Shown one piece after another: positions 1 through 20,000 of a DNA stretch of 20,000 nucleotides. The notes beneath the pieces were generated by a model, which was not told the origin of the DNA, did not search any database, and worked only from the letters and a program-made list of their open reading frames with translations. Each line of letters begins with the position of its first letter. Position 1 is the first letter of the stretch. Source of the stretch: Psammoneis japonica (Eukaryota); assembly GCA_008632985.1 (NCBI GenBank), contig QPGO01000168.1, positions 114,436-134,435 on the forward strand, in the 5' to 3' direction. A program made the position numbers and the translations under genes.

Positions 1-241
1 CAACATTTTCTTAAATGGGTTGATGGTTTGTCTTGAAAAGACACAATTGAGACAAAATGAAACAGTTGGCAATGAACAGGACAAAAACATTGTAAAATTC
101 AGCAATGAAATGATTGATGTCATTTGTGCACAACATGTGCTTTGGCGATGTCCTTTCAACAAGTGTTGCATTGAACAAAATTTGGTGAGCTTTTGTCATG
201 GCCAAAAATTTCTGTGACAAATTTTGTTGTGTGTGATTTGT

Positions 242-270
242 CACGACACGACACGACATGACACGACTCA
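242..270. repeat. Short pentamer tandem repeat (CACGA)n, about 5-6 units
   Basis: Sequence reads cacgacacgacacgacatgacacgactca; one unit shows CG->TG. Confidence 0.8.
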
Positions 271-1021
271 CAAAATGAACACCCACAGTGCACGATGAGG
301 ACTCATCTTGTTTGCCAGTTGTCTCTTGTGCACGATGATGATGAATCAACATGTTGATGTGATGCGGCCTGTTCTGGTGGAATTGGGAGGAACAAGCTTT
401 TCCATCAAAGTGTCTGCATTGACATCAGCAATGTGTGGTTCTGCTGTGGCCTCAGCCTGTGCTGCAGATGCCTCATGGCTTGCATTTGTGTGTTGCACAA
501 CAATGCATGACAAAAAGATCCACTGCATTCTGCACATGAGATGCATGGAAGGGAGGAAAAAACATGACTGTTCAATCTGCCATGTTTTGTCAGCCATGCG
601 TGGTTCTGCTTTTGCCTTGGCCATTCTCCAGCCACCTTGTGATTTGTGTTTGTAATGACATGACACAAGAACAGCACTTTTTTGATGACCGATCTGTTGT
701 GGTGCCAGCCACACCTCACCTTGTTTTGTGATGTGGGTGACATTCAATCAACAGCATCAACTGCACTGACTTGTGTCATGATTGACTGGTGAATTCCATC
801 ATAAAATGGATTCGAGTGTGCCATTGTGTGCTTGCCACTTTTGTTTGTTGCAGTCTGTAGTCATCTGGATGGAGCCGGCATTGTCAGTGCATGGCTCCGC
901 AGGGCCCCAGTGTGCAAGTGCATGGGTGGTTTGGCAAAACACACTTTGTTCTGTGAGCTGGTCACTTCTGAATGTTGCAATTTTTTGTGACATCAACATG
1001 TGATGTGCTGCATGGCAAATG

Positions 1022-1199
1022 TCCATTTGTTGGCATTTGTCTGCTTTTGTCAGGTTCTGTCTGCTTTTGTCAGCATTTGTTGCATGCTGTCAGTGTTTGT
1101 CAGCATTTGTGTGTGCAGACAGAGTTTGTCGGCATTTGTCACATGCTGACGGAGTTTGTCAGCATTTGTTGCATGCTGACAGAGTTTGTTGCATTTGTT
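1022..1199. repeat. Imperfect ~30-bp tandem repeat with internal palindrome (GTCAGCAT...ATGCTGAC), possibly a transposon subterminal array
   Basis: Units start at 1071, 1101, 1130 and 1160 (consensus cagcatttgtNNcatgctgacagagtttgt), with degenerate partial units at 1022-1070. Confidence 0.8.
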
Positions 1200-1259
1200 G
1201 GGCGTGTGACAAAATTGCCAAAAAATCATTCAATGTGCTTGTCTTTGCCAATGGCCAAT

Positions 1260-2990
1260 TTCATCATTCATTGCTTGGGTTGACAGCATGTTTGTGAAGG
1301 AGACACGGCATCACCAATTAAATGACAAGTTTTGTCTTGTTAATTGCCAACAATTGAAATTTGTTCAAGTGCATTTTTTCCAACAAATCATCCAACTCAT
1401 TTGTGGGAATGTTGCAATTGGTGACAAAATGCCATGTGTCCCTGGAGGGGGTTTGTGCATGAGCAGGGACAAGTTGCAGTGCACTGGCACCAAAAATGTC
1501 TCTCAGCAATGAATGTGCAGACAACTGCCAACAGAAAAAGAGGCAATTTTGCAAATGTGTGCATTCCTCCACACTTGAAGCACCTCATTTCTGCTTTGCC
1601 CAGGTGTGCATTCTTCAGACATCAGAGATCACACCCAGCTCATTTTTGTTGTTGCAAGGGGCACAATGAAAAGCCTTTGGTTTTGCAAGGCAGGGAGCAT
1701 GAGACAATTTTGTAGAAGATCACATGCAGAAAACTCTGACATTGCAGCCCAGTGGTGCAACATCTCACCAAGAGCTGGAACATGTCAAAACACAAGCAGC
1801 CAACTTTGAAAATTGCTTTTGGCAGAAAATGTGACCCACAATCACACTCCCAGCATTCAGGAGCAGAGACTTTCACAGATGCAGACAATTTTGCACTGCA
1901 CAGATTTCTGTGCAACAAGTGTGCAGGGCATTTTTGCATGGCTTCTCATGCAACCTCCAACCTCTGACTCCCTCAAGTGTTTGACATGCCACCTGTGGTC
2001 TTTTGTGTCAAATCAGTCAAAAGACACAAGCACTGGCATGAGTGGAGTTGGTGCTCTGATCATTGCATTCAAGTTTTTGTTGTTGGTGTGCCATTGTGAC
2101 AGTTCATTTGGTTGGAGCAGATTTTTCAGGTCTTTTTGGGATGTTGTCAGATGTGCTTCTCAATGTGCTGATGGCAAGAGTTGGCTCCACCACATTGTTT
2201 TTGTTTGTTTTGGTGTGTTTGTTGACATGGGAGGAGCTGGCACAAGTGTCATGGTGCTCACATCCTTTCTTGATGTTTGTTTGAGCAAGGAGTTTTTTGA
2301 CTTGGCTGTCATCCACACATGCCAGCATGGTGTTAATCTCAGATGCCAAGTTGCACAGCACATTTCATGAGTTTTGTTGATTTTTCAACCTTTTTGTGAA
2401 ATGCATTTTGAGCTGACTTGGATCAACCAAAAGCATTTTGAAATCTGGGAGGGACAAACAGCTCAGACACTGATGCTGATGCCAAGGTCAACATGTGCAA
2501 GGTCATGTGTGTGGACCTTGGTGTGAATTTTTTGCATGCAATGACAGGAGTCATTGTGGCTCTCAGAGTCATGGCACAGAAATTGTGCAAAAAGAGTGCC
2601 AGAAACAAACGCTGTCAGTTTGTCCACCCATCCGCACATGAATGTCAACTTCTCGGGAGATCAATTGAAATGCCATCTGCTCAAAGGCACTGCTCTTTGC
2701 CATGCATCAAAATGCCTTTGACCAAATGGCATTTCAGCTGAGAGTTCCCGCAAAGTCAGCAGCTCCAATCACCCTCTCACATGGCATTGTGCACATTTCT
2801 GCATGATTTGGCATTTTTTTCTCATCCAAAATGTCAGCTGTGACTCTCACAACATTTTTGAATGACTCCTGTTGATCTGTCGGTGTCTGAGCACTTTCTT
2901 CACTCTGAATGCTGGGTGGGAGTGGACACAGGCCTCTGGCAAATCCTTGAAGCAGACAAAGCAGATGAGCCCTTTCAGTTTTCAAAAATC
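1260..2990 (-). pseudogene. Degenerate coding remnant of unknown identity, probably transposon-derived
   Basis: A chain of protein-like minus-strand fragments (e.g. NIPTNELDDLLEKMHLNKFQLLAINK, HFLPKAIFKVG, MRCFKCGG, ESFKNVVRVTADILDEKK) is broken by frameshifts and stops. No family is confidently recognised. Confidence 0.3.
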
Positions 2991-3219
2991 AGCCAAACCA
3001 TGGAACTGCAGAGCACAACAAAATGCACAGCATTCCATGTCTGTGCTTTGCTGTGTTGCAAATCAAAATCATGTGTTGTGAAAGCATGGCAAAAAGCACA
3101 AAAGGTGGACAGCATGCAGTGTGATGCTGTGCATTGTCAGAAACATGGCATGATTGTGCAACTCAAAACTTTTGCTCATTGCAGTGTTGTCAAAATTTTT
3201 TGACAATCCTCATTTTGCC

Positions 3220-3960
3220 NNNNNNNNNNNNNNNNNNNNNNNNNNNNNNNNNNNNNNNNNNNNNNNNNNNNNNNNNNNNNNNNNNNNNNNNNNNNNNNNN
3301 NNNNNNNNNNNNNNNNNNNNNNNNNNNNNNNNNNNNNNNNNNNNNNNNNNNNNNNNNNNNNNNNNNNNNNNNNNNNNNNNNNNNNNNNNNNNNNNNNNNN
3401 NNNNNNNNNNNNNNNNNNNNNNNNNNNNNNNNNNNNNNNNNNNNNNNNNNNNNNNNNNNNNNNNNNNNNNNNNNNNNNNNNNNNNNNNNNNNNNNNNNNN
3501 NNNNNNNNNNNNNNNNNNNNNNNNNNNNNNNNNNNNNNNNNNNNNNNNNNNNNNNNNNNNNNNNNNNNNNNNNNNNNNNNNNNNNNNNNNNNNNNNNNNN
3601 NNNNNNNNNNNNNNNNNNNNNNNNNNNNNNNNNNNNNNNNNNNNNNNNNNNNNNNNNNNNNNNNNNNNNNNNNNNNNNNNNNNNNNNNNNNNNNNNNNNN
3701 NNNNNNNNNNNNNNNNNNNNNNNNNNNNNNNNNNNNNNNNNNNNNNNNNNNNNNNNNNNNNNNNNNNNNNNNNNNNNNNNNNNNNNNNNNNNNNNNNNNN
3801 NNNNNNNNNNNNNNNNNNNNNNNNNNNNNNNNNNNNNNNNNNNNNNNNNNNNNNNNNNNNNNNNNNNNNNNNNNNNNNNNNNNNNNNNNNNNNNNNNNNN
3901 NNNNNNNNNNNNNNNNNNNNNNNNNNNNNNNNNNNNNNNNNNNNNNNNNNNNNNNNNNNN
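3220..3960. other. Assembly gap (N run)
   Basis: Ns. Confidence 1.
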
Positions 3961-4185
3961 CTCTCTGCGCAAAGCACAGCTGACTTCTTTCTTCAGCACC
4001 TTGCTGGCATTCACAGTGCTGTGCCAGAAATGTCAGGAAAGGCAGGGATGTTTGCACAACTCTGTGGCTGGAAACAAAACAGGGGGGAACATGGACGAGA
4101 CATTGAGTTGCTTGATGAGTGTTCTTGTTTGGCACTTGTTGAATGCCAAATGGAGATCACTGAACTTTCAACAAAGAAAATGGGC

Positions 4186-4330
4186 AGTTGTTGGCAATTT
4201 TGCAGCAGCGACCGCGGCATTCAGCATCGGATCACATGAAGTGGTTGACACTTTCAACTTTCCACTCATCTCTTGGACAAACAACTTTTGGCAGAGCAGC
4301 TGTGCTCGCACTTGAGAGGCTTTTTTTTAA
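4186..4330 (+). repeat. Diverged, TA-depleted direct copy of the sequence at ~6275-6392 upstream of the glycosyltransferase gene
   Basis: 4225-4255 matches 6316-6346 at 27/31, and 4299-4323 matches 6359-6383 at 21/25 (manual alignment). Confidence 0.85.
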
Positions 4331-4486
4331 GGATGGATCTACGTGCTGCGGTCTGTTTTTTGGGAGCTCATAATTTTCACAAAAATGGCCCAGATGCATC
4401 GCAGCAAATGCACGCGCGTTCGCAAAAAAAAAAAATCAGCGATCGGTCGAACTTTGTCCGTTTGCCAGACACCCTAGAATGCTTGA

Positions 4487-5850
4487 CGCCAATCGCATCA
4501 GACGCTTGTTGCGCGATTTTGCGGCCTGCATGTGGGCCGCAAAAATCTTGTTGCAAATTTTTGCGGCCCGCATGTGGGTCGCAAATTCTTAAAATGACGC
4601 TTGTCTTGGAATGCGCACGCAAAACTTGTGTTGCCGACATCCATCATTGCACACGTGCATTTCTCAGTGGCACGCAACAAACTGCAGCAGCACAATGGTG
4701 CCCACCGCCGGTCTCCCACTTTACGGTGTGACATCTCAATGATCCTCTCACACCGATTTCCCCATTTCTTTCATCAACATTGGGAGGGAATGCACAATGT
4801 GTCCAAACAGATTGGTCCCATCTTCTGTCATTGAGAATTGTGGATTTCTGTTTTGTTCAAAACCACACAGAATTTTCAAATTTGGAAAAGCACGAAATGA
4901 TGGAATGAGCACCAATTTACAAACACTGCACAAATGGTTGTTCTTTTGTGACATGCCAAAATGGACAAAACATGGTTGTGCGGAATGTGGTTTCTGATGG
5001 CAGTCACTTGGCCACTGATCTAGTCTAGTTCCTCAACCGTGATGACAGATTGCCGCGCCAGCTTTTTTGTGGAGTCAATGGAGCGGCTGTTGCTGACACG
5101 CACTCAGCAACAATGAGCTGCGGATCTCGTGCCTCAACTGTGATGTGATGAATTGCAGACATGCCAGCTTTGCAAGGAGCAAACACTTTCTTTCAATCTC
5201 TGCCAATGCCAACTTGTGTCCTCCTGCAACAGCTCCGTCACCGCGGCGCCTGACCTCTCCTTCGTCTGCGCCCATCATGTTTTCTTGACACTTTCCCAAA
5301 TTGATCACATGGGCATGGGCAATGACCTTGAATTGCACTCGAGCTCTCTTGGCCATTGGCGACTCCACAGGAAGACTTGGAGGGGGGGCATGTGCGGGCA
5401 CAGATGGTGCTTCGGCAGCAGACTGCGACACCGGATTTCGCGGCATGTCTTGAACAGGCAAAAAAGGCATGTCCGTTCCCGCTGCAAGCAATGCTGACAC
5501 ATCTGGCACTTCTCCAACGATGTTGTCAGGCGTCCGAGATTGCTGGAGTGAACATCCTTCACCAGTGTGGCCCGCCGTAGGGTCCGCCATGGTGGAGGGA
5601 GAAATCGGCAAAAAAGTGCGCGAAAATGCACACACATTTTAGAGGCTGCGACAACAACCACTGGGACTTTTTTGACAGATGAAGTGTCGATTCCCATGTT
5701 TTCGGGCATGGAGAATTCGACTGTGGGGTCAATTCATCGATTGTCTCTATCATTGAAGATTTGAAAAAATTTGCGGCCCATGTGTGGGCCGCAAATCGTT
5801 TGCGGCCCACACACATGTGGGCCGCAAACGGGCATCTGATGCGATTGGCG
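4487..5850. mobile_element. Non-autonomous TIR DNA transposon (1364 bp) with palindromic subterminal repeats
   Basis: The TIR cgccaatcgcatcagacgc (4487-4505) pairs with gcatctgatgcgattggcg (5832-5850) at 18/19. Flanks are TTGA (4483-4486) and TTAA (5851-5854). Two TTTGCGGCCC-n-GGGCCGCAAA palindromes lie inside each end. Confidence 0.85.
5075..5590 (-). pseudogene. Internal ORF of the TIR element (MADPTAG...), unknown product, probably degenerate
   Basis: The ORF starts at ATG 5590 with a Pro/Ala-rich N-terminus followed by a helical-looking segment. No transposase motif is recognised. Confidence 0.35.
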
Positions 5851-5914
5851 TTAAACGACAGGTACGACCATGCGCGAGTTTTACCTTAACGACTGGAGAT
5901 ATGTCTATAGCCAG

Positions 5915-6040
5915 TCAAATGCCACTTATCGGCATTTCCCGGAAAGTTACCGCTAATCTCCCATAAGAAGCCCGATTTTTTTGAAAATTAGCGGTTTTTT
6001 CGACCTGACAACAGGGCACAGGTCGATAAGTGGCATTTGA
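5915..6040. repeat. Nested inverted repeats (perfect 17-bp outer stem)
   Basis: tcaaatgccacttatcg (5915-5931) pairs with cgataagtggcatttga (6024-6040). Inner pairs are accgctaat (5949-5957)/attagcggt (5987-5995) and tcgacctg/caggtcga (6000-6026). Confidence 0.85.
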
Positions 6041-6458
6041 AGCGCCAAATGTGCAGCTCTTATAGCCGTCTAACAGCCCCTATGAGGGTTTGACGAACGC
6101 ACAAGTGTTCGGGGGTGTTCCGAGGCAGGTCAAAATAACACGGTGAAGTGCGGGAAATGCGAGCTGTTTTAAATTAGACAGCAGCACAAAGAAAATAGCT
6201 CTAGCTACTAAGTCAATTGTCAGTAATTTCGTAGTGCCGGTGGCGTCGGATCATGAAGTTAAATGAAGAGGCGATTGTAGTAATTTTTCGTTGCACCGCG
6301 CTTGATAACATCTATCATCGGATCATGAGAAGTAGTTGACACTTTCCTCTAGAGCCCTGCTGTACTCGTACTCGAGAGACTTTCTTCTCAAGCAGTCAAA
6401 GTGTTGCTCTACAAGTGTTATCAAGACAATTCTACAACGTTAAGATCATTTTCCTTCC

Positions 6459-7499
6459 ATGAAATTTTCGAAGATTGGCATCTCGGTTTTGTCATTTTCT
6501 CTGCTGGTGGTGGGTTGGACTAGCAAAGAAGCCCCTCAATTGAAAGGAAAGCAACTCGAAGTGACCGAAGAAAAGTCAGAACCTGCCACGGGCTTTGTTC
6601 ATTACAAAACGACACGGAGCTCTGGCTGGAATAACCAGCGCGAGGGTGCCATGATGGCTTGGATGGTTGCCTACTTTACGGGACACACGCTTGAGCTTAA
6701 ACCGTTCCATCCAGCTAACACCGGTGTCCTACCGGATCAAGGAGGATACAAGCATGGTGACCTGTGGAATCTTTCTTGTTTGGAAAAGCATGTCCAAGTG
6801 CGAAATATTCCCAGCAACAAAACGTCAGAAGGATATGATTACAATGTCAGCAGATCAAGTGTCTTCGCCAACTACTCAGAAGTACAGGCTTTGAAAAAAT
6901 ATAACAAAATCACCTATAATGGAGGCTGGGCATGCATCATTCGTGCCTTCCCATGGCTTAATCCATCACAAGAGGTGTTCTCCCATCTGATGAATTCCTT
7001 CTCCTACAACTTCGACATTCAGAGATCAGCAGATTTGGTGTTGGAAAGAATTGGTCGGCCCTACGTTGGTTTGCACATTCGAAAAGATAGATTTCCAGCA
7101 ACCAACTGTTCTGCATTGGGTCTTAACGTCAGTTCCGCGGAGGAATCCAAATTCAATTTGAGACGTTGCAAGGGATTGAACTGGACCAACGTTGTCGACA
7201 GAATGTTTCCGAATCTTGATGATGATTACCCGATCTACATTGCTCATGACAGCAGTAGCAGGATGGATCCAACCCTACTTGGCCGGAATTTTCTGCAGTC
7301 GTTTGACTTTGACTTTGTCCGCCAGCTAAGACCTGCAATCCTGTCTGCTGTGGAACAAGAAGTCATGATTCGTGCGGAGTATTTTATTCCATCTATGTAT
7401 TCTACGTGGAGTGAATATGCAGTCTTCAAGCGAGCCGTTGCAGGCAAAGCTGATGGAATGCAAAACTATCAGCACTGGAAGGCCGAGATCTGCCATTGA
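6459..7499 (+). CDS. GDP-fucose protein O-fucosyltransferase-family (O-FucT-like, GT-B) glycosyltransferase, 346 aa, with N-terminal signal/anchor
   Basis: The ORF is long, has normal Tyr content and a hydrophobic N-terminus. It carries SGWNNQRE (cf. G-x-N-N-Q-R), YVGLHIRKD (cf. H-x-R), IYIAHD and AVEQEVMIRAEYFIPSMYSTWS (cf. D/E-Q-x-I/V...F...S-T-F-S) in the canonical order. Confidence 0.8.
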   Translation: MKFSKIGISVLSFSLLVVGWTSKEAPQLKGKQLEVTEEKSEPATGFVHYKTTRSSGWNNQREGAMMAWMVAYFTGHTLELKPFHPANTGVLPDQGGYKHGDLWNLSCLEKHVQVRNIPSNKTSEGYDYNVSRSSVFANYSEVQALKKYNKITYNGGWACIIRAFPWLNPSQEVFSHLMNSFSYNFDIQRSADLVLERIGRPYVGLHIRKDRFPATNCSALGLNVSSAEESKFNLRRCKGLNWTNVVDRMFPNLDDDYPIYIAHDSSSRMDPTLLGRNFLQSFDFDFVRQLRPAILSAVEQEVMIRAEYFIPSMYSTWSEYAVFKRAVAGKADGMQNYQHWKAEICH

Positions 7500-7660
7500 T
7501 GCGCCAATGTTTTGGTTCGTGATGGGTGTCGGCTCTCCAATGCCAGGCGAATATAAAATTGAGGTTCCAAAATCTTGTACCTTTGGCGGTCTGAATGACA
7601 TTGACAGTGATCAGGTCCGTGCACAAACAGGTTAAGCTAGTAATACCTTGCACTAAAGTG

Positions 7661-7855
7661 TGTTCTAGATATTGTGAGAGATTCTGAGCTAGTCTCAGAA
7701 TCGAAGCTATGGTGGAAATCGGAGGATTTCGAGAGGTTAGCTAAACTCTGCGGAACTGCCGATGATTTTCATCACAAACTGACTGGCAGATATGACATCT
7801 TCAATCATGAGGTTCCAATGTCAAAAGGGAATGTGGAATCCCTGTCACCCCCCTT
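7661..7855 (-). mobile_element. Polypurine tract (7848-7855) and putative 3' LTR of the copia element
   Basis: The minus strand reads ttcAAGGGGGG-TGacagg just after the RNase H end. The LTR starts TG at 7847, and a candidate ...ctagaaCA end lies at 7661 (end position uncertain). Confidence 0.45.
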
Positions 7856-9783
7856 GAACCGAATGAGGGAAGATGTTGAAAGCAAGTTGTGAGAGCATGT
7901 GAGCTGGAAGATGCCAAAGAGCACGACCAACCATCACCCAGATCTTGTTGGCACTTTGGGTCTTGGCAGTGCAGTCAGTCGGTTGACTTTCTGCAGGGAC
8001 CCATGCAAGAAGGTGATGACCAAGTGTTGACCTTCTCAGAGATGCATCGAAAACGTTGCTGGATGTGTTGGGTTCGTTGGGTCTGTTGGTCATTTTGGGC
8101 CATTTGAACAGCTGCCAGTTGTCCAACATGGTGATGCTTGGGGTTGTAGACAGATGTTGAGAGTCAATGGAACAGTTGCAAGTGACAAGGCAGGAAAAAT
8201 CACAGGCCAGCATTTGCAGGTGGGCAACAACCATGGCTCCAGCGCATGCACCCATCCATTCAGATTCAGCGGTGGACATTGCGGCAGGGGTTGGGACAGC
8301 AGAGTTGGCTTCTGCAATTGCCCCATTGAAGAAAGCCACAAATCCAATGGCCAATTTTGCAGTGTCAGGGAAATCTTGCCAGCTGGCATCAGTGAAAACA
8401 ACAAACTCAGAATGGCTCATGTTGTGTGCCTCACAAATCATGTGAATTGGACTTGCAGTCAGATCAGAGCAGAATTTGATGGCAAGGTCTTGATGTTTGT
8501 GAAGATGACCAAAAAAATGTGCAAGAGCATCAAAGTTTTTCATGCCCGGGTTGGTGCAGGCCTTGGCGAGTTTGCAGATGATCTGTGCAATGTCGGCTTG
8601 GGTGTTGTGGGCAAGACAGAGGATGGAGCAGACGGCGGAGCAGAAATGAAGGCCAAAGCACTTGGTTGCAATGACCTTGACATCTGTTTCATCCTTGGCA
8701 ATCAAAAATTCAGAGAGCTCAGCAAGCAGACCACCAGAGGCCACTGCAAACAGTGCCATGTGTCCCTTTCTTGAGGTGGAGAGGGACACCAAAATGTTTG
8801 GCACATTCAGGGAAGTGCTGCTTGAGGATCAGGTTGAAGCAGACAAAGAGATGGCTGCAAGCAGGAGCTTGGAGGCAAGTGCCAACAAAATCACCATTCT
8901 TGATGCATTGTTTGGCCTGAGCAGTGAAAGCAAGGAATGGTTTGATGGCATGGGACGATGCGTTCAGGGACCAATTTTCATCGTGGGAGGACTGGCATTG
9001 CATGTTGCTGCATGCACAGTGGCAAGCTTTGAGTTTCTCCAAGGAGCCATTGGACTTCTCCTTGGTGTGGAGAGCAAGGGTGGCGCTGATGATTTTGTCA
9101 TCGGGGCAAGGACATTCGTGGAGAGTGCAGGTCTTGTTGTCCACAATGAGGTTTTTAAGCTCAGAGCATGCAGTGCACAGCTGTGCATCATGAGCTGCAG
9201 GAGGTTGTCTGAGAATGGCTTGGAAAGAACAAGGGACAGGCAAGCAGTCATCATTTGGCACAGACAAGGTGGCTTGGACAGCTTCCAGAGCCCGCTGCAA
9301 TGGATCAGGGCACTGGCACCAATTGCAGTTGATCCACGGGGATGCAACTGATGATGCGCTGCAGGCTTGCTCCTTTCAATAGAGTCATTGAACAGGACTT
9401 GCTCAAGACAATCAGCTGTGGGTTTGGAGGATGCAGCACAGATGTTTTCTTTGTCAGCAAAGTGCACAGCAGTGTGGGTGCCAGCATTGGAGCAAGTGGA
9501 GTGATGCAGGACAGGAGGGACAGGGTTGTCTGGGGGGGTTGAAGTGTCGGAATCGGAGTTGTTGCCATCCGGCTGGGGTGCAGTAGTTTCCAGAGAGGTG
9601 TCGGATTGATCGACAGTGAGGAAACCCTTGACAGTGCCTGCATGCTTGTCAGTGGGTGTGTCGTCATGGTTGGTGAGGCTGGAGGCATCATTGGAGATGG
9701 ATCAGATGGGGAGTGTGCCCAAAAAAGAGACATGATCATGCACCAAAGAAGATTTGAAGCATTCGTCAAAATTGACATCATGT
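7856..9783 (-). mobile_element. Degenerate Ty1/copia retrotransposon pol fragment (integrase C-terminal tail, linker, RT, RNase H), resembling diatom CoDi-type elements
   Basis: Motifs in order: HDVNFDECF (post-integrase DVxFDE), HHSTCSNAG (RRSTR), ELKNL...LEKLKACHCA, DFVGTCLQAP, LKKGTHG, SAVCSILCLAHNTQADIA, VFTDASWQDFPDT, AMSTAESE, LAWVPAESQ. Confidence 0.9.
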
Positions 9784-11935
9784 CCTCTTCTGAATCAGCA
9801 CCATTGTTGTTCACAGAACAGTCTGTCTTGCATGGAGTGTTGGTTCCCTTGTCAATGGATTCTAACTCATCCGGAAATTGCCCTCTGTCAGGATCACATT
9901 CCAAGGAGGATTGTCTTCATCTTCCTCACCAAAGCAAGAGATGCGCACCTCATGACCATCCTTCCTTGGCAGCAACAGACAAAAGACAAAGGCCATTCCC
10001 ACCCAGTGATGAGAGTTTAGAAAGGTCAGTGACACGGTGCTGCCTTTGAAATTGGTGTGCAAAAAGGCAGAATTGCAAAGGGAGTGGTGGCTGCTGAACA
10101 TGTTTTCCACAAGTCTGTCAACCTCACTTCTGATGGAGTTGGTCATGCTGTCTACAAACACACCTGTCTCTCTTTTCAGAGTTCCATTTTCAAACAGGTG
10201 CATCATGTTGCTGGCAGTGGAAAGGATGACCCCAAATGGTTTCTCTCTGAAGTCAGCATGAAGCAAGCAGTTGGTTGCAAAATTGTGTTGCCTCATGTGG
10301 TGCAACTGTTCCTCCTGGTGATTCCCTCTCTTTGTCATCAAGACTGTTGTCATTGGCCTTGCCCTGAACAAGCAACAAATCACAAGCACGGACCAGCTTG
10401 CATTCTTTCCAAAGGTCATCCAGCTCATTGCATCCTGTCATGCAAAAACAGGAACACCTTTGGTGGCAGTTCTTTGTGCCAAGGCAGTCACTGCTCTTTG
10501 CGTCCCCGTTGATTGGGATTGTTGTGGGAATCACACAAAGGCAGTGGATTTTGTCTCTGCATTGGACACAACACCGAAAGCTGCCACACTCCATTGTGTC
10601 AAGCAGTGGCTGAAGTGTCATCTTTAAAACCTTGTGACAGCCACACAGACTTTGCCTCTTCTCCAACTTGTGCATTGGGCTGCTGCTCGGCTGCCAATGA
10701 TGACATTTTTTCCAAGCCAGGAATGTGTCCAAGAACTCTCCACTTTGCCTTGTTGCACCACTTTTTGAAGGCAACATGTGCCAATGTCACTGTCACGGGA
10801 TCTCTGCAAGAAGATCCCATGGAAGCTGTTTTTGTTCTGTTTGTCAACACAAACTGCCAAACACTCCAGGAACTGTTTTTGTGGATCCTTGACTCCAGCC
10901 AAGTGCGTGCTCCTGTGCCACTCTCCAGCCAAAACACATTTGTCATTGATTCCCTTGGCAACATGCATGCCAAAAAGACAAGTTGGGTCCACAAGATTGC
11001 TTTTGTCTGCCCATGTGCAAGTGTCCAACATGTGTGATTGCCACACATCTTCAAAGTTTCAATGTGGTGCCATCGCTGTTTTCTCACCAAGTTCCCCTCT
11101 GGCATTTTCCAGGTTGACTGTGCCAGGAAACGACTTGGAAAGTTTGTCCATCAGTTTGCTCTGACAGGGCATTTTTGTTCCCAGCTTGATTGTGCTGCCA
11201 CAGTGCCTTTTGACAAATCCAACAATGTCATTGCACAAGTGCAGCGGCACTCTGCAATCATCTGTCAGCTTGCACAGCTCTGCACAGGCACGTTCAGGAT
11301 GCTCAGCAATGGCAAACCAGCAAAGGCAACCTTGGCAGGGTGTTGGCATGCCTTGCCCAATCTGCTGTCATCCCCAAGAAAAACATGTCCCCTTGAAATG
11401 ATGTCAATTTGTTCCTCTGTGCATCAGCAACAACTCCATGGTTGTGTCTGGCAATGCACCAAAGGAGTTGGCTTCTTACTTGCTGCTTTCCTCCAAAAGC
11501 ATCTACAGTGACATAAAATGATTCTCCTCTTTGTCACAAATGGAGAAGAGGGGGGAAATGTTGTCTTCAAATGCTGGTGACCACAATGCATCACTGTGGT
11601 CTGCTGCCCCAGCAGAAGACCCAGAATGGATTTTGGTGCCAGAGGCTCCTTGTCACAAGTGCCTCAATCCAGGTGCAGAGGAGTCATTTGATGATGATGA
11701 CAAATCAAATTTCCTGGGATCTCCATCATGAACATTTGCATTCCCAGAGGTGCTGCTGCAACCAAAACAAGGAAGAGCCAACCACATCTTGATGTGGCAA
11801 GTTTGCGATTTTGCAAGTGACAGAAAGGCACTGTGGACCATGATCCAAGTGGCTGAGCATGGGTCAGAATGACTGTTTGCAACAAGGACAGGCAAACTCC
11901 TCTTGCTCATCATGTTTGGACTGAAGAGTGTCCAT
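9784..11935 (-). pseudogene. Plavaka-like DNA-transposon transposase pseudogene, truncated at the C-terminus
   Basis: ATG at 11935 is followed by a zinc-finger-like FACPCCKQSF*PMLSHLDHGPQC. Then come VPLHLCNDIV, GEWHRST...FL...VCVDK, DPVTVTL...KWRVLGHIPGL, CHKVLKMTLQPL, INGDAKSSDCL, PFGVILSTASNMMHLFENG and FLHTNFKGSTVSLTFL. Reading H/C as former Y, these resemble Plavaka motifs as I recall them. There are many frameshifts. Confidence 0.7.
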
Positions 11936-12344
11936 TTTGCAGCAAGAACGAATTTTGATTTTGCCCAAAACAAAAGCAGAGTCCAATTCTCATTAAGTTT
12001 GGTGGTGTGTGGGGTGTGTGTGGTGGTGGGAAACAAAGAAACAAGACACAAAAATGGCACACAAACACAGTTCATTAGTTTCTTTGCATTGATGAATGCT
12101 CTTGTAGTTTCCTGCAAAATGCATGCATTTGGATCATTGAACAATTCCGGAACAAACAATTGATGACAAAGTTGATGTCATCAATGGAAAGGAAACAGCA
12201 AGTTTCAAATGGATGTTCAGTGTGAGATCTAATTGGCGCTCACTGTCAATTTGATTCCATGATGAACTGCAATGCACTCAGGAAAAAACCTTTGCTCTTC
12301 CACTTCCGTTGGTGCAGTGGGTTCAACACATCAACAACAACAGC

Positions 12345-13680
12345 CATGGCACAATGAATCAACAAGTGGTCTGAAGTGAACAATGAAGTTGGTTGTCCCC
12401 AAAACAACATGTTGCTGGCATGCTGACTTGACAACTGCTGGGAGAGATTTGCAGAGCTGAGCAGATTGACCAAAGAGAGAAGAGAAAAAATGACAGAGGC
12501 AGACTGTCATGCAGCAGAAGAAAAGCTGCGGCACTGGTTGGGCATGGAGAGGAAGGATCACTCTTGTGACCCGCACCTGCAACATGACTGCCTTGACATG
12601 CTTTGTTTGTTTAGATCTTACACTGTTCTCTTGATGAGTGACCTGGACAAAGAAGAGCCAATTGACAAGGGAATGTGGAAGGAACTGTGGGAAAGCAAAC
12701 ACCGGACTGCTGAGCCAACAATCAAGGGAGTGTGGAAGGAACTGTGAAAAAACAAATGCCGGACTGTGAGCACAGTGTGGGAGGACATGCAGGAATGGAG
12801 CAGCAAAGCATGTGAGCACATGCATGCCACCCAAGGCATCTTCTCCATGGATGAGACAACGATGAGCACATGGGTGTGATCATTGAGCACACCAGGAATG
12901 TGCACAGATCCAAGCAGCATTGAAACTCAACAGCAACACACCCGGACAGGCAAGGAGAACTGCTCTGTGTCAACAGCTGGGTGCACTGCAGTTGCAAGAA
13001 AGAGATGTTGGATGGATTGGCCACTGGATCCAGGGGGGACAACATGCATTCAGCCATGGACAAGCAAGACATTGATGCATTGAGAGAGATGTCAACCATC
13101 AGCTTGCCCACCCCCATGGAATGGACCACAACAGGAGGTGCAGACTGCTGGCATTGGGCAGCAGTTTTGGAGGTGTTTGCTTGCTTGTGATGGACAAGAA
13201 GGGTGTCACATTTGATGCCATGAAGCTGGCAGATTTGTTCAAGTGCAAAATCATGCATGACACACCCTCAAGGTTGTGGCAGTGTGATGAAATTGGAGTT
13301 CTTTGAATTGACCCTGCAGAGGGTCAATGGTTGGATGTTGGTGGAGATCATTGAGAGAATGAACCTGGGTGATGATTGCAAATGTGATTGTGAAGATAAG
13401 AAGGAGAAACAACAGCGCAGATGTGAGCACAAAGAGAAGAAAGAAAAGATCCATTGTGAACTCATCAAGCATTTTGTCAGTTGATCGCATGACTGATTGC
13501 TCTCACAGTGGAAGGTGCAGCAATTTTGTCATTGCTCATTTGGAGGAAGATGCCATGGAAGAATTGGATTGGATGCCAAGTGCGTGGTGCCAACTGGAGC
13601 TTGGAACTGCTGGGAAGGATGTGTGCATGCAGTCAGTTCATGCCGGAAGAAAATGCTTTTACAGGTGTTGAGGTTCACGC
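12345..13680 (+). pseudogene. Degenerate ORF of unknown function, divergent from the transposase
   Basis: Protein-like, charged helical fragments (WERFAELSRLTKERREKMTEAD, DIDALREMSTISLP, ELIKHFVS) are interrupted by stops and frameshifts. Confidence 0.4.
12655..12771 (+). repeat. 57-bp in-frame tandem duplication (EPIDKGMWKELWESKHRTA / EPTIKGVWKEL*KNKCRTV)
   Basis: Units start at 12655 and 12712. Confidence 0.9.
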
Positions 13681-13999
13681 GTGCACTTAGATCAGTTTAA
13701 AAAAAAATGAACATCAGCAACAAATTCAAACATTGAAATTTCAACCACATTTTTAATTGTTGTTTGAACTGAACATTTGATTGCTGAATTTGCAACAAAG
13801 AAAAATGACAATGGTGCATTCAATGAGAAACTTGCACATTTCTGTTTGTGATTGTGTTGGAATGTCAAGGTGGTTAAAATCAAGAAGCACTGAGAGGAGC
13901 ATCACATGTTGAGTGTCAAGAGAGAGGTTTGAAATTTTTGCAATGGCAGTCTTCCTGATGCACTGTTGCACAACATGATTGCAACAACACAGGCAGTTG

Positions 14000-15132
14000 A
14001 AACAAAACATTGCAACCGGCAAAGGCAATGGCAAGGAAGGAGAATGCAAGGAAGGAGAGTTTGATGGCAGATGACACACCAAACAGCCCAAGACCAACAG
14101 CAGTGTTGCAGTGGGTGGGAGCTGCTGGTGGAAAAGGTGGCACGGAGAGAGCTCTTCCCAAACAAAGCAAAATTCTCAGTGAAGGCAGACATGGCAAGTG
14201 GTGTTGTCATGGCCAATGCATGAAAACACAGCTGATGGCAAGTTCAGCAAATGAGAGCTGGCAGGATCATGGGAAGACTGGGCAAAGAAGTGCATCCTCA
14301 GTGCAATCAGCATGAACAAAAGGAACACTGTGACACAGATGACAATGAAGAGTGTGACAAGTGGCAAGTGCTGCAGGTTGCATTTCTAAGACAACATTGG
14401 GTGTGGCGCTGCCAACAAGGCTCTTGTTTTGCTGCAGTGGCGATGGTGGAAGAACAAGCCAAGGAAATGGGTGGGAGGAAGAAACCACCAAAGAGAGCAA
14501 AAAAAGCAAGAGGAGCAACAAGGTCCAAGCAGATGTTGAAAAACTGTTTGTGGTGACTTGGGAGGATGAGACAGTGGAAAACATTGTGCTTGAGAAGTGC
14601 GCAAACAAGGAGGCATGCACCTGGTTCTATGGCAATGTTCTAAAATTCACAAAGAGCACTGCAATGTGGAGAAAGATGGTGCAGTCCGGCAGCACCAAGG
14701 CTGCAGTGCTGGCTGCAGCAAGCAACAAGGCACTGGTGCTGTTGACATTGGAAAACTGCTGGAAGGTTTAGGAGCACAAGGTCACATGAGAAGGAAAGGA
14801 CAAAGGGAGCAAAGAGGAGGAGAAGGAAACAAAACCAGCGCCCTTGCACACAGACCCAATGCAACAATGTGACTCTTGGAAGGATGAAGGAACAAAGCAA
14901 TTCAATGCAAAAAAAGGGAGAGCAAAGACAAAGGAAAAAGGGCAGAACCACCAAAAAACCGGTGGAGAAGGAGACAAAAACACAAGCAACAACAGAGATT
15001 TTCAGCAACAACAAGGATGACGAAGACAAAACAGAAAAACCTGGTGACAGAAAAGATGAGGAGGAAGACAAAGAGAGCAAAGAAGAAGATGATGATGCCA
15101 AACAAAGAGCAACTGCAGCATGGGCCTGTTGA
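14000..15132 (+). pseudogene. Degenerate transposon accessory ORF with acidic C-terminal tail
   Basis: WFYGNVLKF...MWRK...SNKALVLLTLENCWKV is followed by ALCTD...SWKDEGTKQFN. This resembles the S-D-E-A-x-x-L-L-x-L-E-N / Y-T...W-x-x-x-G-x-x-x-F-N pattern I recall from ORFs beside large DNA-transposon transposases in algae and fungi. The end is D/E/K-rich. Confidence 0.5.
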
Positions 15133-15539
15133 AAATTAAAAACGGCTGCACAAAATCAGCGCTCATTGACAATCCATGTGAGCTGGCAAAAGTTGTGATG
15201 CATTGTTCATTGAGGAATGTGTTTAAAAATTCATTGCACAGTTGATGTTGAATGCAAAAATTGCCACGCACAATGTGGAAAAACAAATGCTGTTGATTGT
15301 CAAGTTCCATGCATTGAAAAAAAGCGCGCACATTGACAGTGAAAGAAGGGAGGCTGTTTGACTGTCAATTGTGATTTCCACAGCTAAGATGAGAGCTCCA
15401 CAGCAAACATCAACTGTCTTTCACAGTCAACCAATTGTTGCCAGCTGCGCAACTGATGAGGTTTGAAACTGTAAAAATGACACCCATGACAGGAATGAAA
15501 ATTGCTGTGAGAAAGATGGTGTCAATCACTGTGTTGCAT

Positions 15540-15832
15540 GCTCTGATGATGTGATGCAGACCCAAGCCACTCTCATCTCTGTGAAGACAACAATGCCTCC
15601 CTTGTGATGGCCTCTGCCAGTCAACCCACTTGCGGCACCCAACACATTGACACCCAACACTTTGACATCCAACACTTTGCTCTTCAAGGTTGGGCAGAAC
15701 AAGATCTTGTGTGATTGGACTGAGTGGACACCACAGCCAACTGCAGTGATGAACTCACAAAGAACTGTGCCAGGACACTCTTCTGTTGGCACCTGGACAC
15801 ACTCACTGGCTGTCGCTGACCAGCGCATGTTC
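15540..15832 (+). mobile_element. Second Ty1/copia fragment: RNase H C-terminus
   Basis: The frame reads LCEDNNASLVMASASQPTCGTQHID...IQHFALQGWAEQDLV*LD*VDTTANCSDELTKNCARTLFCWHLDTLTG, matching the copia YEDN...RTRHIDIK.F...N.AD.LTK pattern. Confidence 0.9.
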
Positions 15833-15919
15833 TGCGCAGCAGCAAAGACCACTCACAGCACTGTTTTCCAGTCAAACAGTGCTCCTCCTCTCACCAGGGT
15901 GCTGCTTTTCCTGGTGTGA

Positions 15920-18081
15920 GGGCATTTCAGTGGAGTGGTCATTCCCATGTGCAAACAGTGAATCACTCTCACAAAATGACAGCCACTCTTCCTCCATGAC
16001 CTGCAACTCCTTTGCCAAGACCTTGCTTCAAAACAAGCACTTCTTGTCATTTGGACATGTGCAGAGAGAGCAGTGCCCTGACCCCTGTGGTGTCAAACAA
16101 GTCCATCTCAATGCTGTCTTGTTGAATTTGTGGCAACTGACCGTGGCTGGAAGTCTTGCTGCATTTGTGATGTGTGGACTGCTTCAACACAACAGAAGTG
16201 CATGCCGCCATGCACTTTTGCCAGAACACACAGCAACATGTGTTGTTGTTCATGCACACCACCATGGCCTTTTTTCACTGTTCATTGTTGTTCCCAGAGA
16301 GAAGCACATGCATCAGGGTTGCGCTCCAATTTGATGGCAGCTGCCAAGAGTGCATGCCAGATGCAGACCATTTTGGGTTTTTTGTGGATGATGCAGCGTG
16401 TCTCTGAGATGTTCCTTGCACCATGATTGAGGTTGGTCTGCACAATTTGTTGCAAACGACAACTGAATCCAAGCAACATCAAGACAAAACTTTGTCTCAT
16501 CATGGACACCCAACCATGGCAACAAGAAATTGCCACAGTCACTGGTGACATGGCTGTGTCTTTGTCACAATGTGAAGCAACCAACAACATTTGTGTGGTG
16601 TCCTTGGCATGTCCAGTCCAGCATGCAGTGGTGGCATTCCTTGGGAGACCAAGTCATGTCAACCACAAGCCACTGCACTCATCCATCTGTGTCTCCCCCC
16701 TGCCCCGACCGGACCAGAGACTGATGGGTGAGACAAAGTTGGGGTTTGGGGTTGACCACTTTCAAAATGACCAAATTGGCAAGTGGTCTTTGCACACAAA
16801 ATGGCACCCAATGACTTTTGAAGGCTTTGGGACTTGTCACAAATCACTTGGCAAAGATTGCCTTGGTCGTTGTTGGGTTGGGATGCCATTGACTCTTGGC
16901 CAATTGACTGGCCATTTCCACATTTTGAGGTCATCAATCTCAAACAACAGAGCAACAGTTGTTTTTGTCTTTCAATTGTTCACCTCCATCTGTGTGCATG
17001 ATGTGGCACTTCCATTCTGTTGAGATGATGGATTTTCAAATTTTTGTGCTTTTTTGCACATGCTTGCTTTCAAACTGGCTGGAAATCATGCACGATGCAG
17101 TGGACAACTCTGACCCCTTTGTCTCAGCATCTGACAAGGACAGTCAAGCAGCGCAATCTTGGATTGTTGCCACACATTGTCAAAAATCAATGTCCAAACA
17201 TTGTGACCTTCAACTGCAATGCCTTGCACAGTCATTTGCAGCAGAAGCCTGAGAGCCATCTTGGAGCCCTCTTGTGTGCCTGAAGCAGCCAAGGAACTCA
17301 TTCAATGCCAATGACATGCCCTTCATTTTCATTCCATCAAGTTTCTTCCTAAAACAAAGCAGTTGTTGTCACTCCAGACAGAACCACACCACAGACCCAG
17401 GTGTCTCTGCAGTCAAAGTTGCTTGTTGACAACTGGGTTCTCAGTTGCTCTCCCTTGCAGCTTGTGCACAGTTGTTGTGTTGTTGCACAAAACTGGGAAC
17501 TGAGTTGTTTGTGTTCTCTGATTGATTTTTGGAGTTCTCTTGTCAATGAAACCCACAACAGGGACAAGAAAGTTGATGGTGCATGTCTCTCTTCTTGGAG
17601 CCACATGAAACAGACCCCCCTGCCTTTTCCTCACAATTCCTTAAGACAATGGACTCAACTTGTGAGACACAGGCTGACCTTGCTCAACAACTGTCAATCA
17701 TCATCAACTCCAAATCATCCAGAGAAACACCTTCCTTTTGGCTCAACTCCCTCAAAAAAGCCAACAGTGCCATTGGTCTCTTTCATCTCCACATCTGCTT
17801 GTTGAGATTCACCATCAGAGGGCCCATTTCTGCTGAGGGCACATGTGCCATGAGTTGCTTTGCCATTGATTGCAACAGCTGCTTGACCGGCAATTGCAGT
17901 GACCACCACAGTGCGCTTTGTGAAAGGCACCCCAAGCTCCTTGCAGAATTTTTTGCATGCTGTGACACTGTCAATCACAGTGCTTTTGCCTGAACCTCTG
18001 GTGCTGGCAAGAAAACAAAGCAGCTGACCTCCACCCTGAGACCCAATTGGTTTGTTCTAAATCCCTTTTCACACTGCTCAA
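15920..18081 (+). mobile_element. Highly degenerate non-LTR retrotransposon remnant (RT followed by an RNase H-like segment)
   Basis: Ordered fragments are TK*QPLFLHD, NSFAKTL...REQ...HLNAVLL, DCFNT, GFFVDDA (Y/FxDD) and NIKTKL, then FVSASD..SWIVAT...QSFAAEA (RNase H-like SDGS...SxRAE). Confidence 0.5.
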
Positions 18082-18576
18082 NNNNNNNNNNNNNNNNNNN
18101 NNNNNNNNNNNNNNNNNNNNNNNNNNNNNNNNNNNNNNNNNNNNNNNNNNNNNNNNNNNNNNNNNNNNNNNNNNNNNNNNNNNNNNNNNNNNNNNNNNNN
18201 NNNNNNNNNNNNNNNNNNNNNNNNNNNNNNNNNNNNNNNNNNNNNNNNNNNNNNNNNNNNNNNNNNNNNNNNNNNNNNNNNNNNNNNNNNNNNNNNNNNN
18301 NNNNNNNNNNNNNNNNNNNNNNNNNNNNNNNNNNNNNNNNNNNNNNNNNNNNNNNNNNNNNNNNNNNNNNNNNNNNNNNNNNNNNNNNNNNNNNNNNNNN
18401 NNNNNNNNNNNNNNNNNNNNNNNNNNNNNNNNNNNNNNNNNNNNNNNNNNNNNNNNNNNNNNNNNNNNNNNNNNNNNNNNNNNNNNNNNNNNNNNNNNNN
18501 NNNNNNNNNNNNNNNNNNNNNNNNNNNNNNNNNNNNNNNNNNNNNNNNNNNNNNNNNNNNNNNNNNNNNNNNNNNN
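18082..18576. other. Assembly gap (N run)
   Basis: Ns. Confidence 1.
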
Positions 18577-18849
18577 CCCTGCCTGACTCTTGTTGGGTCC
18601 TTCTTTGTCATCTGTTTGAAGGGGCTCTGCATCTTGCTCCAACAGATCATGTGGCCCACCTGCATTCAAGCTGTTCCAACAGTCACGCAGATCATGCAGA
18701 AGTTGCTGATGCCAATCATTGATCTTCCCAGACTGAGCATGGTGTTTAAAAGCTGCAACATGGCTCCCATTCTCTTGGAGGTCATCTGCAGATTGGAGCT
18801 GTGCAAACAACAGCAACACTCTCTGTGTGCACTGTTCCATGGCTTGATG

Positions 18850-19350
18850 NNNNNNNNNNNNNNNNNNNNNNNNNNNNNNNNNNNNNNNNNNNNNNNNNNN
18901 NNNNNNNNNNNNNNNNNNNNNNNNNNNNNNNNNNNNNNNNNNNNNNNNNNNNNNNNNNNNNNNNNNNNNNNNNNNNNNNNNNNNNNNNNNNNNNNNNNNN
19001 NNNNNNNNNNNNNNNNNNNNNNNNNNNNNNNNNNNNNNNNNNNNNNNNNNNNNNNNNNNNNNNNNNNNNNNNNNNNNNNNNNNNNNNNNNNNNNNNNNNN
19101 NNNNNNNNNNNNNNNNNNNNNNNNNNNNNNNNNNNNNNNNNNNNNNNNNNNNNNNNNNNNNNNNNNNNNNNNNNNNNNNNNNNNNNNNNNNNNNNNNNNN
19201 NNNNNNNNNNNNNNNNNNNNNNNNNNNNNNNNNNNNNNNNNNNNNNNNNNNNNNNNNNNNNNNNNNNNNNNNNNNNNNNNNNNNNNNNNNNNNNNNNNNN
19301 NNNNNNNNNNNNNNNNNNNNNNNNNNNNNNNNNNNNNNNNNNNNNNNNNN
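18850..19350. other. Assembly gap (N run)
   Basis: Ns. Confidence 1.
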
Positions 19351-20000
19351 GTGAAGTGGGGAGAGGGGGTGAAAAGTGCAAAACCATGTTGTTCTGCAAA
19401 ACACGTGCTTTGTGCAAAAACACCCCATTTGGCTCACTGCCCTGTGTCTTGTGCAGAATCCCATGCAGCAGGCATTTGTCATGCACTCAACGGTCATGTT
19501 TGATGAAGGATCAAAACCAGAAAGAACCCAGAAGTGAACATTCACTGTCAGCGCAAATGATTTGAATGTGCAAACATCAGAAACAAATTGCTTGACTGGA
19601 CTGTCGAAAGCACCATGATGACCCAGCCACTGCTTGTCACCAGGACATTTTACAAAACAGGGGTGTTTCACACATTTCATCAATCTGGGGTGAAAGTGGT
19701 GTCAGGGGCACTGCCCAATGTGTGAAATTAATTCAGCATGCCCCTGTCAAATGTTTTGCTGTGCATGTTGCATCTCATGATTGACCATCATGCCCAGAGA
19801 GCTTGTGCCGCTTTTGTGTTGCAGGTTTCTTAAATCTTGATCCGTGCATGGCTCTGGATGTCCAGGATTGGGACAGCTGGGCTGGCATGTGATTGGCATG
19901 TCGTCAAAACAATGAAAACCTGTTGTCAAAACTGCATCATCGCAGACCTTCATTGTGCAGCTGCCGCATCTCAAGATTCAGGATCACAGAGCTGCTTCAA

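Follow-up and report, generated by a model that had tools for sequence, protein, structure and literature searches.

We analyzed a 20,000-nt stretch of the genome of Psammoneis japonica (GenBank assembly GCA_008632985.1, contig QPGO01000168.1, positions 114,436 through 134,435 of the forward strand; hereafter the window), in which an island of 1,945 bp (positions 5851 through 7795) with one intact gene, encoding a protein of the GDP-fucose protein O-fucosyltransferase (O-FucT) family, has kept its TpA dinucleotides (TA) between flanks that have lost nearly all of theirs. The edges of the island are sharp, mobile DNA is spared inside it, and non-mobile DNA is erased outside it. One copy of a miniature inverted-repeat transposable element (MITE), one long terminal repeat (LTR) and two paralogous sequences have met opposite fates; position, rather than sequence or selection, therefore predicts what is hit. 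We consider it probable that the island is part of a gene-bearing pocket outside two silent transposon domains and that the mutator is aimed by place.

Dinucleotide counts were related to expectation (observed/expected, o/e); outside the island they refer to non-N bases only, with N-masked runs at 3220-3960, 18082-18576 and 18850-19350. The island holds 89 TA (o/e 0.61), the rest of the window 59 in 16,318 non-N nt (o/e 0.05). CG stands at an o/e of 0.84 in the island versus 0.24 in the rest of the window, and TG and CA stand at 1.18 and 1.19 versus 1.82 and 1.88. The left domain (1-4250) has o/e values of 0.03 for TA, 0.16 for CG and 2.20 and 1.87 for CA and TG; the right domain (7796-20000) has 38 TA in 11,209 nt (o/e 0.05), CG at 0.16 and CA and TG at 1.84 and 1.85. 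Loss of TpA in the flanks is paired with a gain of CpA and TpG, and the flanks are the product of TpA hypermutation to TpG or CpA together with CpG decay. Because the changes of TA and of CG to TG or CA cancel in G+C, the island is invisible in a G+C profile (0.452 in the island, 0.468 in the rest of the window). No clear asymmetry between TG and CA, such as a strand bias would give, was found in the DNA adjoining the island. Among the surviving flank TA, 18 of 59 lie in TTAA versus 9 of 89 in the island, and TA followed by T accounts for 2 of 59 versus 21 of 89; this bias toward TTAA and away from TA plus T suggests a context preference of the mutator.

The edges were located with a two-boundary likelihood scan over the window. 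The best TA interval is 5852-7791, with a log-likelihood gain of 108 when scored per position and of 117 per pyrimidine-purine step; the 95% support covers 5747-5852 on the left and 7742-7835 on the right, and both TA edges are sharp to ~100 bp. A preliminary description of the DNA had claimed a sharply bounded island whose TA content fades at ~7795, inside a putative copia LTR, and the change-point analysis bears this out, the right change point (7791) falling within the probable LTR at 7602-7847. The same description had normal TA content starting right at the right end of a DNA transposon with terminal inverted repeats (TIRs). That position agrees with the left support interval, but such exactness goes beyond the ~100-bp resolution: the first TA of the island, at 5852, is part of the TTAA duplicated at the target site of the TIR element, and the preceding one is at 5748. 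In the same scan the CpG-normal interval is wider than the TA island, reaching from 4209 (support 4160-4213) to 7760, with its right edge near that of TA.

The left edge cuts through a copy of a TTAA-flanked MITE, here called R, in which a 1.36-kb non-autonomous TIR element is nested (Table 1). TTAA precedes the start of MITE R, and the end of its right part (R-right) is the inverted complement of the start of its left part (R-left) at 11 of 12 positions. Contigs of a public DNA run were mapped on the window. Four of them have a loose end before 4327, which bounds R as 4327-4482 plus 5851-6187; four others continue past 6187 with the remaining 12 nt of the MITE R TIR, followed by TTAA, and one joins 4482 to 5851, as an empty site with a single TTAA. 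Summed contig depths, which are not copy numbers, are ~1,700 over R-left (4184-4551), 2,000-2,900 over R-right (5840-6207) and 350-1,070 over the TIR element; the unique DNA at 6208-7127 has ~57. The ends of the TIR element are 24-nt TIRs, for which an inverted-repeat search gives 28-nt arms that are 86% complementary.

Because it is nested within the MITE R copy, the TIR element is the younger of the two. It retains 8 TA in 1,364 nt (o/e 0.09, or 90% erased) with a CG o/e of 0.78. This younger element is erased beside an untouched R-right, and age therefore cannot explain the sparing. Nor is MITE R intrinsically immune, since R-left is partly erased: at 4378 and 4380 the window has CA versus TA in most of the mapped depth (1,630 of 1,925 and 1,672 of 1,865, respectively). 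TA persists in R-left at 4328, 4340, 4371 and 4475.

An exact left edge would also be produced by history alone, if the TIR element had been pasted in already TA-erased and the mutator had been idle here since; the edge would then be an insertion junction, and an older, fuzzy edge would lie in R-left. Such an element, non-autonomous and with intact TIRs, could be moved in trans after its erasure, giving an exact edge without any barrier, and R-left is indeed only partly erased (TA o/e 0.36). The target-site copies of the element speak against this, however, for the right one reads TTAA and the left one TTGA, the left having changed after insertion. So do two contigs from other copies of the element, which carry the opposite product to the window at six dinucleotides: TG against CA in the window at 4778/9, 4808/9, 5005/6 and 5013/4, and CA against TG in the window at 4800/1 and 4995/6. 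At 4804 TA stands in the other copy. Where a site shows opposite products, an ancestral TA (or CG) must have been altered separately in the two copies. With ~54-77 erased TA estimated for the element, i.e. 8-11 per 195 nt, the three opposite-product sites in one 193-nt contig are about what independent erasure predicts. Judged by these comparisons, the element was probably erased after its copies separated. Arrival in an erased state would leave the right edge inside the LTR unexplained, and its edge would still cross one MITE copy, so that position would still decide; we regard this history as improbable.

The right edge falls in what is probably the 3' LTR of a minus-strand copia-like element, next to the dead C-terminal part of its pol. 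In Ty1/copia elements a pol ending in RNase H is followed by a polypurine tract and a TG...CA LTR; on the minus strand here, pol is followed by AAGGGGGG and then by TG. Spared and erased DNA divide within this repeat. Of the 44 pyrimidine-purine steps in the outer 190 bp (7602-7791), 11 are TA and 6 are CG; of the 12 in the inner 56 bp (7792-7847), none is either (17/44 versus 0/12; p ~0.003, a binomial estimate). At least three quarters of the probable LTR is spared while the adjoining pol is erased. Mapped depth is 311 in 7680-7863 and 22.8 in 7864-8047.

The pol open reading frame (ORF; 7848-8828) has 3 relatives (E 3e-45 to 1e-44). It is 37% identical over 275 aa to the C-terminal part of one of them, the pol protein P0008, in an alignment that stops ~14 codons before the present stop. 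At sites where P0008 has Tyr the window pol has Cys in five cases, His in two and Tyr in none (alignment count), a coding read-out of TA erasure. The motifs of the relatives belong to what we take to be the RNase H end of copia-type elements, and P0008 and P0010 match the Pfam family RNase_H weakly (E 0.09-0.15). The pol ORF matches no Pfam family at E up to 0.1, a six-frame Pfam scan of 7501-10502 with stops read through finds 0 families, and no Pfam match to a reverse transcriptase or an integrase was obtained in the copia-like flank.

Two stretches of non-mobile DNA differ in the same way. P1 (Table 1) is a degenerate paralog of P2, which lies upstream of the O-FucT gene at 6247-6394; a transition-tolerant local alignment of the two scores 63 versus 28 ± 3.3 for shuffles (maximum 44.5). 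The two lie 2.1 kb apart; P1 is fully TA-erased and P2 normal, and P1 is non-mobile and of unique depth. At seven or more aligned sites (at least 7) P2 has TA and P1 has TG or CA, versus the reverse at 1 (alignment count). Around P1, in 4000-4351, the window and a public-run contig differ by 4 substitutions and 3 indels in 352 nt; three of the 4 substitutions set CG or TA against TG or CA, a small hint that the process is recent. A tandem duplication of the gene was considered separately and rejected, with 5855-6246 against 6437-7800 giving z values of -1.0 and 0.2.

These opposite fates bear on the idea that targeting is directed by sequence, small RNAs or homology marking transposon families, with slight spreading, so that the island would simply be unguided DNA. 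In its favor, the TIR element ends inside the support interval of the left edge (5747-5852), the TIR element and the copia-like element are both erased, and RNA-guided targeting is one possibility offered for Bigelowiella natans by Mettrop et al. (bioRxiv 10.64898/2026.01.13.699255). Against it stand the two halves of one MITE copy, R-right, with the greatest summed depth anywhere in the stretch, being spared and R-left partly erased; the LTR, split into a spared and an erased part; and P1, neither mobile nor of more than unique depth and fully erased, with its paralog P2 spared. The main target in B. natans, moreover, is single-copy (10.64898/2026.01.13.699255). Sequence-directed targeting is therefore, in our judgment, unlikely. 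Copy number does no better as a predictor, since the spared R-right is multi-copy (35-50 times the unique summed depth) and the erased DNA at 8077-9500 is at unique depth.

Three further mechanisms were examined and set aside. Repeat recognition of the type known from repeat-induced point mutation (RIP) is contradicted by the sparing of the most repeated DNA (R-right) and the erasure of P1 and 8077-9500 at unique depth. RNA editing of the ADAR type, fixed by reverse transcription, does not account for the erasure of a DNA TIR element, of its target-site copy and of the non-mobile P1. Gene conversion of the island from a donor fails for 6208-7127, which is at unique depth at 90% likeness or more (at least 90%), so that there is no donor for that part.

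The gene itself is intronless and intact. Its product matches PF10250 with E 3.2e-8 and 34 bits (gathering cut-off 31.5) over profile positions 6-324 of 326, has 6 relatives at 38-50% identity, and keeps 47 of the 47 columns that are invariant in the alignment of the relatives, Y72, Y97 and Y183 included. An Atlas search with the protein gave 20 of 30 feature hits in the O-FucT set; among metagenome contigs, 262 pattern matches to O-FucT relatives yielded 0 confirmed ones. One Tyr kept in all six relatives is His here, in a KHV motif. The 3' third of the gene (7128-7495) has ~2 times the unique depth: at 7282-7465 an identical contig is accompanied by one of 184 nt with 18 differences, each at full depth, and one X2 contig diverges after 7471. 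On the evidence of these contigs, a paralog ~90% alike to this third is present elsewhere in the genome.

That the gene is intact and conserved would suit purifying selection, by which the mutator would hit everywhere and lineages hit in the gene or its control regions would be lost. The coding sequence (CDS) also has a lower TA o/e (0.46) than its non-coding neighbors in the island (0.81-0.85). Selection on the protein nevertheless leaves unexplained that the CDS, with 35 TA, has kept 19 that a synonymous transition could have erased. Another 53 TA are kept in the non-coding DNA of the island (20 in R-right, 19 in the upstream region, 3 in the spacer and 11 in the outer LTR), MITE and LTR included, and at the highest TA o/e of the window: 0.85 (5851-6187) and 0.81 (6188-6458) over the 608 bp that precede the ATG, which contain no ORF of at least 40 aa, and 0.73 for the outer LTR. 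In B. natans, changes build up gradually, at 2-45 per line across 186 kb (10.64898/2026.01.13.699255), and sparing would need selection at each site. We hold purifying selection to be very improbable. The preliminary description had argued that protein-level selection is insufficient, as non-coding flanks are spared along with the coding sequence, and both points are upheld by the synonymous-site test and the non-coding counts. It had also spoken of a protected island around a host gene, which is right in that there is one intact gene inside; ~527 of the 1,945 bp (~27%), namely 337 bp of MITE and ~190 bp of the probable copia LTR, is not host DNA.

Technical origins of the pattern can be judged from the same contigs. 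In some long-read assemblies, modified bases lead to A>G and C>T errors of a systematic kind, and such bases in silent DNA might thus have been miscalled here (A as G, C as T), or the edges might be chimeric assembly joins. Among the mapped contigs listed none spans 5851 or 7465-8077, and depth in 7864-8047 is only 22.8. Public-run contigs nevertheless match both states, with 0 differences in 1,120 nt of the island (6188-7307) and 5 substitutions and 1 indel in 1,425 nt of TA-free DNA (8077-9500). Copies of the TIR element carry differing products in contigs, and coherent elements straddle both edges, namely TIRs with their target-site duplication at the left edge and the terminal repeats of the LTR at the right one. 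The public run (X1) is possibly the assembly's own sample and thus not fully independent. An artefact appears extremely unlikely to us, in agreement with the earlier view that the island argues against a global sequencing error. A very recent insertion of the island, named beforehand as a possible refutation, is also unlikely: the island has no insertion junction of its own at either end, since the left edge is the junction of the TIR element inside the MITE and the right one lies inside the LTR. As a separate observation, the compared contigs differ from the window in the erased flanks (4000-4351 and 8077-9500) and show 0 differences in the island (6188-7307); the differences may be allelic or between strains, and possibly reflect a higher mutation rate in the flanks.

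If the mutator is aimed by place, a process acting at the DNA level would turn TpA into TpG or CpA, an A:T to G:C transition, in silent domains, where CpG would be lost too. What it aims at would be the chromosomal domain, in all likelihood a silent state of the chromatin; the sequence, copy number and age of the DNA would not matter. The neighborhood of the active gene would be excluded, presumably by being active or open chromatin. The preliminary description had suggested that transcription or open chromatin keeps the mutator out; the excluding state may be either of these or the lack of a silent mark. For the chemistry, oxidation of thymine at TpA is an alternative to deamination of adenine. 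The latter would be our choice; Mettrop et al. propose adenine deamination to inosine (10.64898/2026.01.13.699255).

The stretch between the left CpG and TA edges adds a possible time course. At 4209-5850 TA is erased and CpG normal (o/e 0.78-1.32 in R-left and the TIR element), and the outer flanks have lost both; the TA process therefore does not itself remove CpG. TA erasure may be faster than CpG decay, which would explain this stretch, or the TIR element may simply be free of CpG methylation. In the former case, the pocket would once have extended from ~4209 to ~7760, where CpG stays normal, and the TA-erasing domain would later have advanced to 5851, at or after insertion of the TIR element. 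More tentatively, and as a possibility that we would not yet favor, the mutator reads the chromatin domain and the genome keeps a fossil map of heterochromatin borders, sharp to ~100 bp, which here would record an advance of ~1.6 kb toward the gene, at or after the transposon insertion, provided that TA erasure is the faster process.

Several points weigh against targeting by position. The left edge at the end of the TIR element is, within resolution, also what a sequence-directed mechanism predicts, and the empty-site joint comes from one contig with 28 letters on its shorter side (bar 31). On the right, the evidence from TA alone is weaker: 6 of the 88 gaps between island TA are at least 56 bp long, and by TA alone the edge could equal the inner end of the LTR (p ~0.06-0.08). 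The assignment of 7602-7847 as a 3' LTR is read from its features and position, and it is without a partner: a search for a second LTR in the window gave a best score of 36 versus a background of 27 ± 3.5, i.e. none found, and no comparison of 7600-8600 with the remainder of the window exceeded z = 3.4. The low TA content of the CDS, where TA across codon junctions number 15 versus 27.9 ± 3.8 in codon-order shuffles, may be ordinary TA avoidance, or the mutator may have reached the CDS to a slight degree. Spared DNA extends 608 bp ahead of the ATG, more than a likely transcript would, and ~290 bp beyond the stop, which transcription alone explains poorly. Finally, according to Mettrop et al. 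(10.64898/2026.01.13.699255), the hypermutable virophage region of B. natans "does not differ ... by gene expression" from other insertions.

Table 1. Coordinates of the features at the island and in its flanks (window positions; o/e, observed/expected)
Feature	Positions	Strand	Remarks
Old erased domain, left	1..4152	.	nearly all TA and most CG lost; N-masked 3220-3960
P1, degenerate paralog of the gene upstream region 6247-6394	4153..4326	+	TA 0 in 174 nt; CG o/e 0.54
R-left, left part of the multi-copy TTAA-flanked MITE R	4327..4482	+	TA o/e 0.36, CG o/e 1.32; partly TA-erased
Left target-site duplication copy	4483..4486	.	TTGA from TTAA (TpA to TpG), by empty-site comparison
Non-autonomous TIR element, 1,364 bp, nested in MITE R	4487..5850	.	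TIRs 4487-4510 and 5827-5850; palindromic subterminal repeats
R-right, right part of the same MITE copy	5851..6187	+	intact TTAA 5851-5854; 20 TA, o/e 0.85; CG o/e 1.12; left end of spared island
Unique non-coding upstream region, including P2 (6247-6394)	6188..6458	+	depth 57.4; 19 TA, o/e 0.81
Intronless gene, 346-aa GDP-fucose protein O-fucosyltransferase-family protein with N-terminal hydrophobic anchor	6459..7499	+	intact; PF10250
3' spacer, stop codon to LTR	7500..7601	+	3 TA; CG o/e 0.94
Probable 3' LTR of copia-like element	7602..7847	-	terminal inverted repeat TGACAGTGAT / ATCCCTGTCA, 9/10
Putative polypurine tract (AAGGGGGG on minus strand), between pol and LTR	7848..7855	-	read from sequence; role inferred from position
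Dead C-terminal part (putative RNase H region) of copia-like pol	7848..8828	-	no tyrosine codon left
Old erased domain, right	7796..20000	.	TA o/e 0.05; N-masked 18082-18576, 18850-19350

The two elements at the left edge have features of their own. MITE R is ~505 bp long, with the TIR GGATGGATCTACGTGCTGC..., and has 30-50 times the unique summed depth; the window copy lacks the last 12 nt of the right TIR and the right-hand TTAA. At 5928 most of the depth (3,430 of 4,505, in 21 contigs) has TG versus TA in the window copy. Near each of its ends the TIR element has a palindrome (TTTGCGGCC..GGCCGCAAA) in three to five copies; on these palindromes an Rfam search of 3961-8400 placed two microRNA-like hits below threshold (33.7 versus 100 bits and 27.5 versus 90 bits). 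Other copies of the element end beside TCAA, which resembles TTAA changed by T to C (loose end at 5795). A TTAA duplication together with TIRs, as in piggyBac-like elements, is present for both the TIR element and MITE R; none of the 8 ORFs in the TIR element matches a Pfam family, such as a piggyBac-type transposase, above the cut-off.

The erased flanks are poor in recognizable content. None of the 77 flank ORFs matches Pfam above the cut-off, with three weak, chance-level rows only, and the same holds for the 13 ORFs of at least 90 aa in the left erased domain. The reverse transcriptase and integrase parts missing from the dead elements may sit in the three N-masked runs, which limits the annotation of the flanks. 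The left erased domain has an array of a degenerate 10-bp unit (TTTGTCAGCA-like) at 1016-1190, in at least 7 overlapping copies. Clusters of surviving TA in the right erased domain, at 13660-13754 (4 TA in 95 bp), 11477-11514 and 12076-12105, could be resistant contexts or younger insertions. A tRNA search found none.

TpA-specific hypermutation has one experimental report. Full-text searches of the literature led to that preprint, and nothing turned up on the erasure of TpA from transposons of diatoms. In it, Mettrop et al. (bioRxiv 10.64898/2026.01.13.699255) describe T/A to C/G changes confined to TpA at ~6e-7 per site per generation in B. natans, a mutation rate raised about 1000-fold. Their targets are a single-copy integrated giant-virus region and a virophage region; the large target is transcriptionally silent, and the smaller one is not distinguishable by expression (10.64898/2026.01.13.699255). 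The present locus resembles that case in its T/A to C/G changes at TpA, with TpA depletion and CpA and TpG enrichment in clusters, in its regional and possibly single-copy target, and in transposon-type domains being enriched among depleted sequences. TpA transitions, regional confinement and independence from repetition, by which a process of the B. natans type may be recognized, are all found here.

The differences are that B. natans is a rhizarian alga in which new mutations were measured, whereas here there is a long-term footprint only, that erasure is near saturation here (o/e 0.05) and not in the B. natans nucleocytoplasmic large DNA virus sequence (o/e 0.45), and that the P. japonica locus has CpG decay in its older flanks and edges sharp to ~100 bp that cut single mobile elements. 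Borders are left untreated in the preprint, where the stem "boundar" occurs 0 times; its supplementary files may bear on them (10.64898/2026.01.13.699255). The locus thus offers a natural experiment on the targeting rule. Were the mutator to read a chromatin domain, this would point to a DNA adenine deaminase coupled to silent chromatin, or to a thymine modifier, common to distant algal lineages.

RIP, in Neurospora and other fungi, is alike in acting on DNA, in a regional and transition-only manner, in killing transposons and in leaving a dinucleotide footprint. It changes C to T at CpA, which makes TpA, and is triggered by duplication, striking every copy. Here, by contrast, TpA is destroyed, the opposite direction, and the duplicated P2, R-right and outer LTR are spared whereas DNA of unique depth is erased. 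RIP is also named as a comparison in the B. natans preprint (10.64898/2026.01.13.699255). CpG decay by cytosine methylation and deamination shares with the old flanks the low CG o/e (0.16) and the excess of TG and CA, but it cannot remove TpA, and 4209-5850 is TA-erased with normal CpG. That TA erasure is separable from CpG decay in this stretch may give a relative clock for the history of silent domains.

The closest likeness in form is to heterochromatin-euchromatin borders beside transposons, where silencing spreads from insertions. Such borders, too, follow place, stop near an active gene and can be moved by a transposon insertion; unlike them, the putative border here is written permanently in the DNA as a mutation footprint. 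The locus provides fixed positions for setting that footprint beside chromatin marks, DNA modifications and the ends of transcripts, and if it is a fossil border map, past spread of silencing would be readable genome-wide from sequence. What is new relative to these systems is the anatomy of the edges: both run through single mobile elements, and erasure has struck a nested element that is younger than the spared DNA next to it. These opposite fates argue against repeat recognition, age and selection and for a positional cue from the chromatin domain.

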